A stretch of DNA of 64,000 nt from Escherichia coli (GTDB taxonomy: Bacteria > Pseudomonadota > Gammaproteobacteria > Enterobacterales > Enterobacteriaceae). A model generated the notes under the pieces. It ran no database searches and was not told the origin of the DNA. It saw only the letters and a program-made list of their open reading frames with translations. Every line of letters starts with the position of its first letter. Position 1 is the stretch's first letter. Both the position numbers and the translations under genes were made by a program. The stretch is from NCBI RefSeq assembly GCF_013122565.1, contig NZ_CP053258.1; one strand, 5' to 3'. Below, in pieces: positions 1,677-57,704 of the stretch.

Positions 1677-3215
1677 ATGGCTTTTGCCTCATTAATTGAA
1701 CGCCAGCGCATTCGCCTGCTGCTGGCGTTATTATTCGGTGCCTGCGGAACGCTGGCCTTCTCTCCTTACGATGTCTGGCCTGCGGCGATTATTTCGCTGA
1801 TGGGGCTTCAGGCGTTGACCTTTAACCGTCGTCCACTCCAGTCTGCCGCTATTGGCTTTTGCTGGGGATTTGGCCTCTTTGGCAGCGGTATTAACTGGGT
1901 CTATGTCAGCATCGCGACCTTTGGCGGAATGCCTGGCCCGGTTAACATCTTCCTGGTGGTGCTGCTGGCGGCGTATTTGTCGCTGTATACCGGACTGTTT
2001 GCTGGCGTGCTGTCGCGCCTGTGGCCGAAAACCACCTGGCTGCGCGTGGCGATTGCCGCCCCTGCTCTCTGGCAAGTGACCGAGTTTCTGCGCGGTTGGG
2101 TACTGACCGGCTTCCCGTGGTTACAGTTCGGCTATAGCCAGATTGATGGCCCGTTAAAAGGGCTGGCACCGATAATGGGCGTGGAAGCCATTAACTTCCT
2201 GCTGATGATGGTTAGTGGCCTGCTGGCACTGGCGTTGGTCAAACGCAACTGGCGTCCGCTGGTGGTGGCCGTCGTGCTGTTTGCCCTACCCTTCCCGCTG
2301 CGTTACATCCAATGGTTTACCCCGCAACCGGAGAAAACCATTCAGGTTTCGATGGTTCAGGGCGATATTCCGCAATCGCTGAAATGGGACGAAGGCCAGC
2401 TTCTTAATACGCTGAAGATTTACTACAACGCAACGGCACCGCTGATGGGCAAATCATCGTTGATTATCTGGCCGGAGTCGGCGATAACCGATCTGGAAAT
2501 TAATCAGCAACCGTTCCTCAAAGCACTGGACGGTGAGTTGCGCGAGAAAGGGAGCTCGCTGGTAACCGGGATTGTTGACGCGCGTCTCAATAAGCAGAAC
2601 CGCTACGATACCTACAACACCATCATCACGCTGGGTAAAGGTGCACCGTACAGCTACGAATCAGCCGATCGCTATAACAAAAACCATCTGGTGCCGTTTG
2701 GCGAGTTTGTCCCGCTCGAGTCGATTCTGCGTCCGTTAGCACCGTTCTTTGATCTGCCGATGTCGTCGTTCAGCCGTGGGCCATATATCCAGCCGCCGCT
2801 GTCGGCAAATGGTATTGAGCTTACTGCGGCTATTTGCTATGAGATCATTCTTGGCGAGCAAGTGCGTGATAACTTCCGCCCGGATACCGACTACCTGCTG
2901 ACTATCTCCAATGATGCATGGTTTGGTAAGTCTATTGGTCCATGGCAGCACTTCCAGATGGCGCGTATGCGTGCGTTGGAGCTGGCGCGCCCATTGCTGC
3001 GTAGTACCAACAACGGCATTACGGCGGTGATTGGCCCGCAGGGTGAGATTCAGGCGATGATCCCGCAGTTCACCCGCGAGGTGCTAACCACTAATGTGAC
3101 ACCGACCACCGGACTCACACCGTATGCACGTACCGGCAACTGGCCGCTGTGGGTGCTGACGGTGCTATTTGGTTTTGCCGCTGTGTTGATGAGTCTGCGT
3201 CAACGACGTAAATAA
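1677..3215 (+). CDS. lnt: Apolipoprotein N-acyltransferase, 512 aa
   Basis: ORF 1677..3215; N-terminal TM segments; C-terminal CN-hydrolase domain with E (WPESA), K ([10 protein letters not shown]), C (AAICYEI) triad. Confidence 0.95.
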
Positions 3216-3314
3216 TCCCTTCTTATCGTGCCGGAATACATCCCGTATTTCGGCACGCTCACCGGATGCGGCATCAGTGCATTATCCGGATAACAATATT
3301 CTCCTATCCAACTT

Positions 3315-3330
3315 TGGCACATCTATTGCT
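3315..3330 (+). promoter_or_regulatory. Candidate sigma-54 (-24/-12) promoter element TGGCAC-N5-TTGCT upstream of gltI
   Basis: Exact consensus-spaced GG/GC element read at 3315-3330, about 280 nt upstream of gltI ATG. Confidence 0.4.
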
Positions 3331-3611
3331 TTGTTATACAAGGCAAAGCTTGAACCAGCATCAGTACAACCCGGTTGCACCACAGCAATCCACCGGTAGC
3401 ACCAAAAGAGTGCATTTTAAGAATTTTGCTTCGGAATGGTGCGGCGCACCTCGCAAAAACAAACAATAAAACATCAATATCTTTACATTTAGCCAAACTA
3501 AATGTTACCTAACAGGCACAACACTGCACAATAAAGTTGCAGACGATAACAACACAAACACTCACAACGGGTATCCATGCGTTCTTAACGCAGAAGATAA
3601 AGGAGTTGGAT

Positions 3612-4520
3612 ATGCAATTACGTAAACCTGCCACAGCAATCCTGGCCCTGGCGCTTTCCGCAGGACTGGCACAGGCAGATGACGCCGCCCCGGTAGCGGG
3701 CAGTACGCTGGACAAAATCGCCAAAAACGGCGTGATTGTCGTCGGTCACCGTGAATCTTCAGTACCTTTCTCTTATTACGACAATCAGCAAAAAGTGGTG
3801 GGTTACTCGCAGGATTACTCCAACGCCATTGTTGAAGCAGTGAAAAAGAAACTCAACAAACCGGACTTGCAGGTAAAACTGATTCCGATTACCTCACAAA
3901 ACCGTATTCCGCTGCTGCAAAACGGCACTTTTGATTTTGAATGTGGTTCTACCACCAACAACGTCGAACGCCAAAAACAGGCGGCTTTCTCTGACACTAT
4001 TTTCGTGGTCGGTACGCGCCTGTTGACCAAAAAGGGTGGTGATATCAAAGATTTTGCCGATCTGAAAGGCAAAGCCGTAGTCGTTACTTCCGGCACTACC
4101 TCTGAAGTTTTGCTCAACAAACTGAATGAAGAGCAAAAAATGAATATGCGCATCATCAGCGCCAAAGATCACGGAGACTCTTTCCGTACCCTGGAAAGTG
4201 GTCGTGCTGTTGCCTTTATGATGGATGACGCTCTGCTGGCTGGTGAACGTGCGAAAGCGAAGAAACCAGACAACTGGGATATCGTCGGCAAGCCGCAGTC
4301 TCAGGAAGCCTACGGTTGTATGTTGCGTAAAGACGATCCGCAGTTCAAAAAGCTGATGGATGACACCATCGCGCAGGTGCAGACCTCCGGTGAAGCGGAA
4401 AAATGGTTTGATAAATGGTTCAAAAATCCAATTCCGCCGAAAAACCTGAACATGAATTTCGAACTGTCAGACGAAATGAAAGCACTGTTCAAAGAACCGA
4501 ATGACAAGGCACTGAACTAA
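3612..4520 (+). CDS. gltI: Glutamate/aspartate ABC transporter periplasmic binding protein, 302 aa
   Basis: Internal ATG at 3612 preceded by AGGAG (3601-3605); signal peptide MQLRKPATAILALALSAGLAQA; longer ORF from 3537 rejected. Confidence 0.9.
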   Translation: MQLRKPATAILALALSAGLAQADDAAPVAGSTLDKIAKNGVIVVGHRESSVPFSYYDNQQKVVGYSQDYSNAIVEAVKKKLNKPDLQVKLIPITSQNRIPLLQNGTFDFECGSTTNNVERQKQAAFSDTIFVVGTRLLTKKGGDIKDFADLKGKAVVVTSGTTSEVLLNKLNEEQKMNMRIISAKDHGDSFRTLESGRAVAFMMDDALLAGERAKAKKPDNWDIVGKPQSQEAYGCMLRKDDPQFKKLMDDTIAQVQTSGEAEKWFDKWFKNPIPPKNLNMNFELSDEMKALFKEPNDKALN

Positions 4521-5430: not shown

Positions 5431-6104
5431 TGTACGAGTTTGACTGGAGTTCCATTGTTCCTTCCCTGCCATATCTGCTCGACGGGCTGGTGATCACCCT
5501 GAAAATCACCGTCACGGCAGTCGTGATTGGTATTTTGTGGGGCACCATGCTGGCGGTGATGCGCTTGTCCAGCTTTGCGCCCGTAGCATGGTTTGCCAAA
5601 GCCTACGTTAACGTATTCCGCTCGATTCCTTTAGTTATGGTTTTGCTGTGGTTTTACCTGATCGTGCCGGGTTTTCTGCAAAACGTGCTGGGATTATCAC
5701 CAAAAAATGATATCCGTTTAATTTCGGCGATGGTGGCGTTTTCGATGTTTGAAGCGGCCTACTATTCAGAGATTATCCGTGCCGGTATTCAAAGTATTTC
5801 TCGTGGTCAATCGAGCGCCGCGCTGGCGTTGGGGATGACTCACTGGCAGTCGATGAAACTGATTATTCTGCCGCAGGCGTTCCGCGCGATGGTGCCGCTG
5901 CTGCTCACTCAGGGCATCGTACTGTTCCAGGATACCTCACTGGTGTATGTGTTATCTCTGGCCGATTTCTTCCGTACCGCCTCAACCATTGGTGAGCGTG
6001 ATGGTACGCAGGTTGAGATGATCCTGTTTGCCGGATTTGTTTATTTCGTTATTAGCCTTAGCGCGTCGTTGTTGGTCAGCTACTTGAAAAGAAGGACAGC
6101 ATAA
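5430..6104 (+). CDS. gltK: Glutamate/aspartate ABC transporter permease, 224 aa
   Basis: ORF 5430..6104; start overlaps gltJ stop; permease-like hydrophobic sequence. Confidence 0.9.
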
Positions 6105-6829
6105 TGATTACCCTGAAAAATGTTTCAAAATGGTATGGTCACTTTCAGGTGCTGACCGACTGCTCAACCGAAGTGAAAAAAGGCGAAGTGGTGGTGGTTT
6201 GTGGCCCGTCTGGTTCCGGCAAATCAACGCTGATTAAAACCGTCAACGGCCTCGAACCGGTGCAGCAAGGTGAAATCACCGTCGATGGTATCGTGGTTAA
6301 CGACAAGAAAACCGATCTGGCAAAGCTGCGTTCCCGCGTCGGGATGGTGTTCCAGCATTTTGAGTTGTTCCCCCATTTGTCGATTATTGAAAACCTGACT
6401 CTGGCGCAGGTTAAAGTGCTTAAACGCGATAAAGCACCCGCTCGTGAAAAAGCATTGAAATTGCTGGAGCGCGTGGGACTTTCCGCACATGCCAATAAAT
6501 TTCCGGCACAGCTTTCCGGCGGTCAGCAGCAGCGTGTGGCGATCGCTCGCGCATTATGTATGGATCCTATTGCCATGCTGTTCGACGAACCGACATCGGC
6601 GCTGGATCCGGAGATGATCAACGAAGTGCTGGACGTAATGGTCGAACTGGCGAATGAAGGAATGACCATGATGGTGGTGACCCACGAAATGGGCTTTGCC
6701 CGTAAAGTGGCGAATCGGGTGATCTTTATGGATGAGGGTAAAATTGTCGAAGACTCGCCGAAAGATGCGTTCTTCGATGATCCGAAATCGGACCGCGCAA
6801 AAGACTTCCTCGCGAAAATCCTGCATTAA
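6104..6829 (+). CDS. gltL: Glutamate/aspartate ABC transporter ATP-binding protein, 241 aa
   Basis: Walker [10 protein letters not shown] and ABC signature LSGGQQQR in translation; start overlaps gltK stop. Confidence 0.95.
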
Positions 6830-19171: not shown

Positions 19172-19753
19172 GTGCGATATCTGGCAACATTGTTGTTATC
19201 TCTGGCGGTGTTAATCACCGCCGGGTGTGGCTGGCATCTGCGTGATACCACGCAGGTTCCTTCCACTATGAAGGTCATGATTCTGGACTCAGGCGATCCG
19301 AACGGGCCATTAAGCCGTGCGGTGCGTAACCAGTTACGTCTGAATGGTGTCGAGTTGCTTGATAAAGAAACCACGCGTAAGGACGTTCCATCCCTGCGTT
19401 TGGGTGCTGTATCAATCTCGCAGGATACCGCGTCGGTTTTCCGTAATGGTCAAACTGCGGAATATCAGATGGTGATGACTGTTAGCGCGTCGGTATTGAT
19501 TCCTGGACGAGATATCTACCCGATTAGCGCCAAAGTCTTCCGTTCGTTCTTCGATAACCCGCAAATGGCGTTAGCGAAAGATAACGAGCAGGAAATGATC
19601 ATTAAAGAGATGTACGACCGTGCTGCCGAACAGCTGATTCGTAAGCTACCAAGCATCCGTGCTGCGGATATTCGTTCCGACGAAGAACAGACGTCGACCA
19701 CAACGGATACTCCGGCAACGCCTGCACGCGTCTCCACCACGCTGGGTAACTGA
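19172..19753 (+). CDS. lptE: LPS assembly lipoprotein LptE, 193 aa
   Basis: GTG start at 19172; lipobox LITAGCG; 14 nt after leuS stop. Confidence 0.9.
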
Positions 19754-32541: not shown

Positions 32542-33336
32542 TCATAATAATTGCGGCGGCGCAAAGCGACGGTTGTTTAAGACGGGCAGTTGCGCGCGCA
32601 CCTGACGCACACGTTCGGGCGTCACTTCCGCCATAATGAGTGCAGGCATTTCTGACGCTGCCGCAATGGTGACGCCAAAGGGATCTATAATCCGGCTTTG
32701 CCCGATATTTTTGTTCCCGCACTCCCCCGCCGCCACCATATAACAGGTGGTATCCAGCGCACGAGCGGCAAGCAACGTTGACCAGTGATGCTCTTTGAGC
32801 GGCCCGCGAACCCAGGCGGCAGGAAGTACCAGGATTTCAGCTCCCTGTAATGCCTGTGCCAGCGCCAGCTCTGGAAAGCGTAAGTCATAACAGGTCATCA
32901 GACCGACCTTCATCCCTTCCACCTCCAGTAATGGAGCTATTTCATTACCAGCATCAACATGGCGTGATTCCTGAATGGCAAATGCATCATAGAGATGAAG
33001 TTTGGCATAACGGGCAACGATGTTTCCTGCCTGTAGCGCCACCAGCATATTCCATGCGCGCCCCGGCGTTGAAGGAACATGAATCGTCAGAATTGTCGTC
33101 ATCATGTTACGTTTACTTTCTCGCCGTAAACGTCCGAGGAATTCGCCTTCCAGCAGCTGTGCTGATTTAACCGATAGATCTGCATCATGATCATCGCGCG
33201 CCAGCAATGCTTCCGGCAGGACAAACAGCGATACGTCGTTTTCCGCCGCCTGCGCCATCAACGAGGCACAAATCTCAGCGTTCTTTTCCCACACAGATGT
33301 AACAGCAAACTGTCCTGCAGCAACCAACATTGCCAC
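32542..33336 (-). CDS. ybeM: C-N hydrolase (nitrilase superfamily) amidase YbeM, 264 aa, reading frame intact
   Basis: Uninterrupted ORF; E (LPE), K (YAKLHLYD), C ([10 protein letters not shown]) catalytic-triad contexts present. Confidence 0.8.
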
Positions 33337-33422
33337 CTCCTGTCAGAGTCGTAAAATTCGCCAACGACGATTATTCGGCGTTACACTTATCACTCATACA
33401 AATCAAATAGCAGGATTTTGCA

Positions 33423-34804: not shown

Positions 34805-35290
34805 TTGTGACCATAAAACATTTATCAAAAATCTACTACTAGCATAGCAAAGCTACAATTAACATAACCTTAATAGCTCCAACATAAAGAATAATCTGAA
34901 TAGCTGCTCTATTTATTTCCGCTTGTTTAAGTTAAATATTTCCGCGCATCGATTTAAAATGATACATCGTTTTCTGCGATGGGAATAGTCATAAAAGAAA
35001 AAGCAAGTTATTACTGATAACAAAATGCAATCAAGAAAAAAATGACTTATTTTTTAATAAGATACAAAAAATTATCTTAACAAAGAATATATTATATATC
35101 GTCAACCCACGCCCATTATAGATTATTTTTTGAGCACACAACCGCAGCTAACACCATTGCAATTAACAAATTTGCATCAATCTACCATCAATTTACACAC
35201 ATTATTATGTGATAATTGCCAACTGTTAAATATGCGTTTTGTTATCTATGTATAAAAACAGCAACTTCAATGTCTTAATGGCAGTTTTTC

Positions 35291-35304
35291 TTGATTTTAA
35301 TCAG
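35291..35304 (+). promoter_or_regulatory. FNR-like site TTGAT-N4-ATCAG upstream of dcuC
   Basis: One mismatch to TTGAT-N4-ATCAA; about 95 nt upstream of dcuC ATG. Confidence 0.45.
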
Positions 35305-35393
35305 CATTCACCGCCAATTTATTGGGCATATTTTTTCCTTAAGTTTTAGGAATTTTTTATTATTTACTTTGGGGCCTGGAGACAGGAAAAATT

Positions 35394-36779
35394 ATGCTGA
35401 CATTCATTGAACTCCTTATTGGGGTTGTGGTTATTGTGGGTGTAGCTCGCTACATCATTAAAGGGTATTCCGCCACTGGTGTGTTATTTGTCGGTGGCCT
35501 GTTATTGCTGATTATCAGTGCCATTATGGGGCACAAAGTGTTACCGTCCAGCCAGGCTTCAACAGGCTACAGCGCCACGGATATCGTTGAATACGTTAAA
35601 ATATTGCTAATGAGCCGCGGCGGCGACCTCGGCATGATGATTATGATGCTGTGTGGCTTTGCCGCTTACATGACCCATATCGGCGCGAATGATATGGTGG
35701 TCAAGCTGGCGTCAAAACCATTGCAGTATATTAACTCCCCTTACCTGCTGATGATTGCCGCCTATTTTGTTGCCTGTCTGATGTCTTTGGCCGTCTCTTC
35801 CGCAACCGGTCTGGGCGTTTTGCTGATGGCTACTCTGTTTCCGGTGATGGTAAACGTTGGTATCAGTCGTGGCGCAGCAGCTGCCATTTGTGCCTCCCCG
35901 GCGGCGATTATTCTCGCACCGACTTCAGGGGATGTGGTGCTGGCGGCACAGGCTTCCGAAATGTCGCTGATTGACTTCGCCTTCAAAACGACGCTGCCTA
36001 TCTCAATTGCTGCAATTATCGGCATGGCGATCGCCCACTTCTTCTGGCAACGTTATCTGGATAAAAAAGAGCACATTTCTCATGAAATGTTAGATGTCAG
36101 TGAAATCACCACCACTGCTCCTGCGTTTTATGCCATTTTGCCGTTCACGCCGATCATCGGTGTACTGATTTTTGACGGTAAATGGGGTCCGCAATTACAC
36201 ATCATCACTATTCTGGTGATTTGTATGCTGATTGCCTCCATTCTGGAGTTTCTCCGCAGCTTTAATACCCAGAAAGTTTTCTCTGGTCTGGAAGTGGCTT
36301 ATCGCGGGATGGCAGATGCGTTTGCTAACGTGGTGATGCTGCTGGTTGCCGCTGGGGTATTCGCTCAGGGGCTTAGCACCATCGGCTTTATTCAAAGTCT
36401 GATTTCTATCGCTACCTCGTTTGGTTCGGCGAGTATCATCCTGATGCTGGTATTGGTGATTCTGACAATGCTGGCGGCAGTCACGACCGGTTCAGGCAAT
36501 GCGCCGTTTTATGCGTTTGTTGAGATGATCCCGAAACTGGCGCACTCTTCCGGCATTAACCCGGCGTATTTGACTATCCCGATGCTGCAGGCGTCAAACC
36601 TGGGCCGTACCCTTTCGCCCGTTTCTGGCGTAGTCGTTGCGGTTGCCGGGATGGCGAAAATCTCACCATTTGAAGTCGTAAAACGCACCTCGGTGCCGGT
36701 GCTTGTTGGGCTGGTGATTGTTATCGTTGCTACAGAGCTGATGGTGCCAGGAACGGCAGCAGCGGTCACAGGCAAGTAA
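35394..36779 (+). CDS. dcuC: Anaerobic C4-dicarboxylate transporter DcuC, 461 aa
   Basis: Polytopic membrane protein; recognised sequence. Confidence 0.9.
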   Translation: MLTFIELLIGVVVIVGVARYIIKGYSATGVLFVGGLLLLIISAIMGHKVLPSSQASTGYSATDIVEYVKILLMSRGGDLGMMIMMLCGFAAYMTHIGANDMVVKLASKPLQYINSPYLLMIAAYFVACLMSLAVSSATGLGVLLMATLFPVMVNVGISRGAAAAICASPAAIILAPTSGDVVLAAQASEMSLIDFAFKTTLPISIAAIIGMAIAHFFWQRYLDKKEHISHEMLDVSEITTTAPAFYAILPFTPIIGVLIFDGKWGPQLHIITILVICMLIASILEFLRSFNTQKVFSGLEVAYRGMADAFANVVMLLVAAGVFAQGLSTIGFIQSLISIATSFGSASIILMLVLVILTMLAAVTTGSGNAPFYAFVEMIPKLAHSSGINPAYLTIPMLQASNLGRTLSPVSGVVVAVAGMAKISPFEVVKRTSVPVLVGLVIVIVATELMVPGTAAAVTGK

Positions 36780-56543: not shown

Positions 56544-57704
56544 CTACAGCTGGCGCAGGCGTTCAGCTGCTGCCAGCAACGTCGATTCCTTCTTGGCAAA
56601 ACAGAGACGAATCAGTTTATGTGGGAAGGGATCGGCGCAAAACACCGATAGCGGAATCGCCGCTACGCCGTGCTCCTGCGTCAGCCACTGGCAAAACTCA
56701 ACATCATCCAGGGTAGATACGGCGCTGTAATCCACCAGCAAAAAGTATGTGCCTTCGCACGGTAAAATCTCCAGCCGACTTTCATTTAAGGCGTTAACCA
56801 GAATATCGCGCTTCTGGCGATAAAAGTCCGGTAACGCAAGATAATGCTCAGGTTCTGCACGTAGCATATCGGCAAGCGCCAGCTGTGCCGGGGTATTTAC
56901 CGAAAAGGTCAGATACTGATGTACCTTGCGAATTTCGGCACTGATGGGCGCTGGCGCAACGCAATAACCCACTTTCCAGCCGGTCATATGATAGGTCTTG
57001 CCAAACGATGACACCGCCACCGCCCGCTCACGCAACTGCGGATGCGCCAGCACACTGGCATGGCCCTGTTGTGAAAAGTTGATGTGCTCGTAGACTTCAT
57101 CGCTAATGACAAAAATCTCGTGCCCGGCGATCGCCTGCCACAAAGCGGCGAAATCAGCCTGCTGCCAGACAGTTGCACTGGGGTTATGCGGAGTGTTGAG
57201 GATCACCAGTCGGGTGCGCTCGCTTAACAATGCGGCAAATTCCTGCCAGTCAACGCGAAAATGCGGTGGTTGCAGTGCCATACGCTTCACTATTCCCCCA
57301 GAAAGCGCGATGGCGGGGGCGTAACTGTCATAGCTGGGATCAAAACAAATCACTTCATCGCCATTGCGCACCAATGCGGTAATCGCCGCGTATAACGCCT
57401 CCGTCGCCCCTGCCGTTACGGTGATATCGCTGTCGGCATCCGGTTGATAGCCATACAGACGTTCCGTTTTCTGAGCAATCGCCTCGCGCAAGGCCTGCAC
57501 GCCGCTCATGGGCGCGTATTGGTTTGCCCCCTGGGCAACGTGGTACGCCAGTCGCTCTTGTAAATAGCGCGGACCATCAAAATCAGGAAAGCCTTGCGAA
57601 AGGTTAATCGCCTGGTGTTGCTGCGCCAGCGCGCTCATCTGGGTGAAAATAGTGGTGCCAAGTTGTGGAAGTTTGCTTTGTGGAATCAGAGGGTTATTTG
57701 TCAT
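56544..57704 (-). CDS. ybdL: PLP-dependent methionine aminotransferase YbdL, 386 aa
   Basis: Class I aminotransferase; PLP lysine in SFGKTYHMTGWKVGY. Confidence 0.9.
   Translation of the reverse strand: MTNNPLIPQSKLPQLGTTIFTQMSALAQQHQAINLSQGFPDFDGPRYLQERLAYHVAQGANQYAPMSGVQALREAIAQKTERLYGYQPDADSDITVTAGATEALYAAITALVRNGDEVICFDPSYDSYAPAIALSGGIVKRMALQPPHFRVDWQEFAALLSERTRLVILNTPHNPSATVWQQADFAALWQAIAGHEIFVISDEVYEHINFSQQGHASVLAHPQLRERAVAVSSFGKTYHMTGWKVGYCVAPAPISAEIRKVHQYLTFSVNTPAQLALADMLRAEPEHYLALPDFYRQKRDILVNALNESRLEILPCEGTYFLLVDYSAVSTLDDVEFCQWLTQEHGVAAIPLSVFCADPFPHKLIRLCFAKKESTLLAAAERLRQL

Follow-up and report, generated by a model that had tools for sequence, protein, structure and literature searches.

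We describe a copy of the gene ybeM in a 64,000-nucleotide stretch of an Escherichia coli chromosome (contig NZ_CP053258.1 of NCBI RefSeq assembly GCF_013122565.1; hereafter the window) that is very probably an intact, functional allele. It would encode deaminated glutathione (dGSH) amidase, which corresponds in bacteria to eukaryotic Nit1. Standard annotation already covers the gene, its family and its assigned function as well as the pseudogene status of its K-12 counterpart, and the sole mildly new detail of our analysis is quantitative, namely that the K-12 lesion has a frequency of about 16% among complete E. coli genomes. We infer the substrate and the chemistry of the product from its family assignment and from published work on Nit1 and YbeM; its expression in the source strain is also presumed.

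Reading frame and catalytic residues of ybeM

The open reading frame listing of the window contains an uninterrupted frame at 32542-33336 on the minus strand, which amounts to 264 amino acids when counted from a GTG codon. Given the base composition of the window, the chance of a stop-free run of 264 codons is about 4e-6 per frame position. The GTG (33334-33336) is located in frame two codons upstream of an ATG (33328-33330) and is probably unused. Because it overlaps a Shine-Dalgarno sequence, GGAGG at 33336-33340, which precedes the ATG by 5 nt and can be read in TGACAGGAGGTGGCAATG, and because the RefSeq orthologues of ybeM are 789 bp long (i.e., 262 amino acids and a stop codon) and begin at ATG, the true start is almost certainly the ATG at 33330, with a predicted product of 262 rather than 264 amino acids. 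The coding sequence would then extend over 32542-33330 on the minus strand and consist of 262 codons followed by a TGA stop codon at 32542-32544, the predicted product being a deaminated glutathione amidase of the Nit1 branch of the nitrilase superfamily.

Several residues that are characteristic of the superfamily were located in this translation by alignment with the Nit domain of C. elegans NitFhit (1ems) and with yeast Nit2 (4h5u). In the numbering of the 262-residue product, the relevant motifs are LPE at 38-40, YAKLH at 108-112 and MTCYD at 145-149. Glu40 (GAA, 33211-33213, minus strand as are all codons that follow) is the last residue of LPE and is aligned with the conserved LPE glutamate of both structures. 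Lys110 (AAA, 33001-33003), found in the segment YAKLHLYD, is aligned with the lysine of KLHLFD in NitFhit and yeast Nit2, and the putative nucleophile Cys147 (TGT, 32890-32892) is aligned with the cysteine of CYD in the same two proteins; this column of the structure alignment contains Cys in 4h5u and Ser in 4hgd. A further glutamate, Glu121 (GAA, 32968-32970) in the motif QES, is aligned with ES of lmESE in NitFhit and of lkESK in yeast Nit2. In keeping with what is published on the superfamily, we take it to be the second catalytic glutamate, which is the fourth member of the Glu-Lys-Glu-Cys tetrad of the superfamily. The Glu-Lys-Cys triad and the second glutamate are thus all present, in the correct order and at positions homologous to those in 1ems and 4h5u.

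A preliminary description of this DNA had claimed an intact ybeM of 264 codons with a complete Glu-Lys-Cys triad in the expected order. Both claims hold; the coordinates and the length were exact, the strand is minus, the codons of E40, K110 and C147 are those given above, and the likely start moves so that 262 residues are left. The preliminary description had also allowed for a frameshift missed in the window copy, and there is none, as the translation is identical to a common public protein and is fitted from end to end by the family model NF033621.

The same segment of DNA contains a 47-residue out-of-frame open reading frame (32937-33080, minus strand) whose N-terminus reads MFLQRRGAH. 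In PMC6206680, where ybeM of strain UTI89 is otherwise handled as a normal gene, a 29-bp ybeM fragment encoding the MFLQRRGAH peptide led to filamentation when over-expressed, an effect that the authors deem artificial. The peptide at the start of the out-of-frame reading frame in the window is the same as that in the UTI89 fragment.

Family assignment and proposed reaction

The NCBIfam model for deaminated glutathione amidase, NF033621, assigns YbeM a score of 451.5 bits, well in excess of its curated whole-protein cut-off of 355 bits, with residues 3-261 of the protein aligned to positions 2-260 of the 260-position profile. The next best family model scores 82.7 bits, and the models for nitrilase, AguB and formamidase all give scores far under their cut-offs, which leaves NF033621 as the sole model above its own cut-off. 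The Pfam domain CN_hydrolase (PF00795) is detected with E = 4.7e-41, residues 3-245 being aligned to positions 2-255 of 256. Among the solved structures, the nearest ones by sequence are NitFhit (1ems, E = 1.7e-29) and yeast Nit2 (4h5u, E = 1.1e-26), with mouse Nit2 ranked behind them. YbeM is a member of the nitrilase or carbon-nitrogen hydrolase superfamily and would adopt the alpha-beta-beta-alpha sandwich fold, as judged from homology to the solved structures. All E. coli genomes among the matches listed carry "deaminated glutathione amidase" as the RefSeq product name of the ybeM orthologue, and the order of genes in the window (lipA, tatE, ybeM, crcB, cspE, pagP) matches that in K-12, in strain AR_0013 and in eight public contigs, with ybeM placed between crcB and tatE in each.

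The window protein closely resembles the E. coli YbeM proteins already on record (NF033621; WP_001330455.1 and relatives), with which it shares the locus crcB-ybeM-tatE-lipA and the length of 262 amino acids. It differs from WP_001330455.1 of strain AR_0013 by one residue, A230S, and no functional difference from known YbeM alleles is apparent. At the DNA level, a few synonymous SNPs are private to the window gene, such as the one that makes codon 2 TTG in place of CTG, and the best identity of the gene to complete E. coli genomes is 99.4%; a 57-mer at the start of ybeM that includes a window-private SNP is absent from the GTDB species-representative genomes. Proteins of the eukaryotic Nit1 branch (NitFhit, 1ems; yeast Nit2, 4h5u and 4hgd) have the aligned Glu-Lys-Glu-Cys residues in common with YbeM and belong to the same branch of the superfamily, but they are distant in sequence, and YbeM is shorter, lacks the loop insertions and is not fused to Fhit.

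The nitrilase superfamily shares a standard chemistry, which may be applied to YbeM as follows. Cys147 would attack the carbonyl of the amide to form a thioester acyl-enzyme, with Glu40 acting as the general base and Lys110 as the stabiliser of the tetrahedral intermediate or oxyanion, while Glu121 would aid the positioning of the substrate and of water; reaction of the acyl-enzyme with water would then set free 2-oxoglutarate. In cellular terms, transaminases would now and then act on glutathione and produce dGSH, the 2-oxo analogue N-(4-oxoglutaryl)-L-cysteinylglycine, and YbeM would cleave the amide bond of dGSH to yield 2-oxoglutarate and cysteinylglycine, which would make it a metabolite-repair enzyme. 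The Nit1 homologues of E. coli and of other glutathione-producing bacteria are reportedly excellent dGSH amidases. PMC5714238 and PMC10452834, both of which cite Peracchi et al. 2017, describe hydrolysis of dGSH by Nit1 as metabolite repair, and PMC5714238 gives dGSH as the published substrate for mammalian Nit1 as well as for yeast Nit2 and names transaminases as its proposed source.

One alternative is that the intact protein acts on another substrate, for instance as an omega-amidase on 2-oxoglutaramate in the manner of YafV and Nit2, or as a nitrilase. The catalytic residues alone do not reveal specificity within the nitrilase superfamily, and several further models of the superfamily do match YbeM, although weakly. 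YafV and mammalian Nit2 (omega-amidase, or 2-oxoglutaramate amidase) resemble YbeM in the CN_hydrolase fold family, in the catalytic residues and in being metabolite-repair amidases. However, they are paralogues that form a separate family. The PRK10438 amidohydrolase model (NF007757), taken here as that of YafV, gives YbeM 61.5 bits, covers residues 88-252 only and does not reach its cut-off of 249 bits, in contrast to the dGSH amidase model, which alone exceeds its cut-off; moreover, structures of the Nit1 branch outrank mouse Nit2 in the sequence comparison. The same division is drawn in PMC8788347, where YbeM is NIT1/dGSH amidase and YafV is NIT2/omega-amidase. A different substrate is consequently very improbable in our estimate, and dGSH is the substrate that we adopt for YbeM.

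Intact and frameshifted alleles in E. coli

Across the public assembly collection, 38,604 indexed blocks contain the exact 262-residue YbeM of the window, and ten intact ybeM alleles (that of the window and nine others) differ at 21 synonymous sites as opposed to one non-synonymous codon. By these two observations, intact ybeM is the norm in E. coli, and purifying selection acts on it. A 62-mer probe taken from the intact window sequence matches 3,622 complete genomes with at least 99% identity and the other 1,802 with 95-99% identity, the latter band being a mixture of frameshift carriers and SNP-bearing intact alleles; the frameshift itself is tallied below by a separate 61-mer probe only. 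A class of 974-bp ybeM matches was considered as a further disrupted allele and rejected, since its 789-bp coding sequence is intact and the extra 3 bp are intergenic. A class of 970-bp matches is consistent with the K-12-type deletion haplotype.

An open reading frame could in principle still belong to a gene that is silent or decaying, i.e., an intact-looking pseudogene. The gene is evidently dispensable, given that null alleles are present in about 16% of the complete E. coli genomes, and a simple and crude scan of the minus strand directly upstream of ybeM found no strong match to a promoter and no convincing sigma-70 site, which amounts to weak negative evidence. On the other hand, the ratio of 21 synonymous to one non-synonymous difference among intact alleles is not that of a decaying gene, and the window protein is the commonest allele; it is the frameshift haplotype, by contrast, that carries H124R, with V33A and V37A in addition in K-12. 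The gene also has a strong Shine-Dalgarno sequence and an ATG, and its orthologue in strain CFT073 is transcribed and NO-responsive (PMC5320621). We therefore regard a silent or decaying window gene as very improbable, and treat the window ybeM as a functional allele.

The K-12 reference strain MG1655 has its copy (b4581) at 658031-658818, where the annotation gives a 788-bp pseudogene, and in older K-12 annotations this copy was presumably split into ybeH (b0625) and ybeM (b0626). The locus is orthologous to that of the window, and the surrounding 6.9 kb are 98.2% identical. In a pairwise alignment, MG1655 ybeM differs from the window gene by one missing G in codon 67 and by 13 substitutions. 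The missing base is present in the window at 33131 (minus strand), where it is the coding-strand G in the middle of CGT, the codon for Arg67; its position follows from the pairwise alignment, from an alignment of 12 alleles and from the population probes. The K-12 translation consists of 66 correct residues and nine wrong ones and then stops, which yields a stub of 75 amino acids that contains E40 only. Because the frameshift parts E40 from K110, E121 and C147, all of which fall in another frame, the K-12 gene cannot give rise to an assembled active site.

Apart from the deletion, the frameshift haplotype carries one non-synonymous substitution, H124R, to which K-12 adds V33A and V37A for a total of three in K-12, as seen in the alignment of 12 alleles. 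The natural carrier that we examined, strain 300709, has neither V33A nor V37A. Both substitutions, being gained in K-12, fit a presumed relaxation of constraint, or drift, after inactivation. Within the loci compared, the frameshifted gene occupies 3032-3819 of the MG1655 locus and 1333-2120 of the strain 300709 locus.

The exact K-12 61-mer that spans the deletion is found in 860 of 5,424 complete E. coli genomes (~16%), including C600, DH5alpha and J53 as well as wild isolates. A probe for the K-12-specific segment with V33A and V37A matched 365 genomes, which divides the carriers into ~365 that resemble K-12 derivatives and ~495 natural isolates (~10%). Frameshift carriers among the matches listed come from human stool, chicken, dog, river water and bovine mastitis, and ybeM of strain 300709 (human stool, Mozambique) is flagged "frameshifted" in its PGAP/RefSeq annotation. 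The frameshift of K-12 is hence a natural allele that many wild isolates share, and no peculiarity of the laboratory strain.

The preliminary description had given the K-12 reference gene as a disrupted pseudogene, which is correct, and had left two explanations for the difference: 1) the strain from which the DNA derives has a functional copy or 2) the reference annotation merits re-examination. The first is the right one. The second is rejected: that the K-12 pseudogene is an artefact of annotation or sequencing and the reference copy truly intact is hardly credible when MG1655 has 788 bp against the 789 bp of intact alleles with one G gone in codon 67, when its translation stops after residue 75, when 860 complete genomes, assembled independently in many laboratories, contain the exact 61-mer, and when PGAP marked the copy in strain 300709 independently.

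On a broader reading of these counts, K-12 would have inherited its frameshift as a natural null allele that became fixed in a sizeable wild clade, and both K-12 and this clade would naturally lack a metabolite-repair enzyme. We put this forward as a tentative possibility and consider it rather unlikely as stated. If it is true, losing the enzyme may have been neutral, with dGSH being tolerated or taken by another amidase, or it may have been adaptive.

Independently of that reading, K-12 is a natural dGSH amidase null, whereas most E. coli, the window sequence included, have the enzyme, and experiments on glutathione damage and metabolite repair in K-12 are therefore unrepresentative of the species. 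The single-base lesion in codon 67, common to ~16% of complete genomes, is also a handy lineage marker.

The surrounding chromosome

The window is colinear with positions 627,289-692,557 of the K-12 chromosome in reverse orientation and contains no added insertions. All 63 of the 63 K-12 genes that are complete in this stretch are intact, and the identity to K-12, ~98.2%, decreases to 95.6% at the ent-ahpC end. A Shigella origin is unlikely in view of the intact genes and of the colinearity with K-12. The closest of 5,426 complete E. coli genomes reaches 98.8% identity over 20 kb of the window. In a sliding comparison the divergence is uniform, with private SNPs, and is not mosaic. Judging from these comparisons, the window comes from a natural, undecayed, non-K-12 chromosome of the E. 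coli type, whose lineage is absent from the complete RefSeq genomes compared.

Several local features of the window were recorded in addition. The gap between gltI and lnt contains an empty site at ~3505-3512, where the K-12 element IS5D (687,851-689,045) is missing from the window. The segment 52600-56600, which includes dsbG, citR, ybdN and ybdM, has a rare haplotype that is found with at least 99% identity in 8 of 5,422 complete genomes, while 5,351 genomes have less than 95% identity. Within it, the nucleotide identity to K-12 is 85.8% for citR, in which 80 of the codon differences are synonymous and 33 non-synonymous, and 92.5% for ybdM. This suggests that the segment may be an old recombinant or imported piece. 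The gene for methionine transaminase, ybdL, is located at 56544-57704 on the minus strand, ~23 kb from ybeM, and there is no evidence in the window tying the two genes to each other.

The intergenic region between pagP and dcuC (34903-35400) is a SNP hot spot with 27-40 differences per 500 bp in comparison with nine E. coli genomes, against 1-16 in the neighbouring bins. Two further genes are less similar to K-12 than the ~98-99% that is typical of the region: lptE (19172-19753) is 94.0% identical, with two gaps in the alignment, and gltL (6104-6829) is 95.3% identical, with all 34 of its 34 differences being synonymous.
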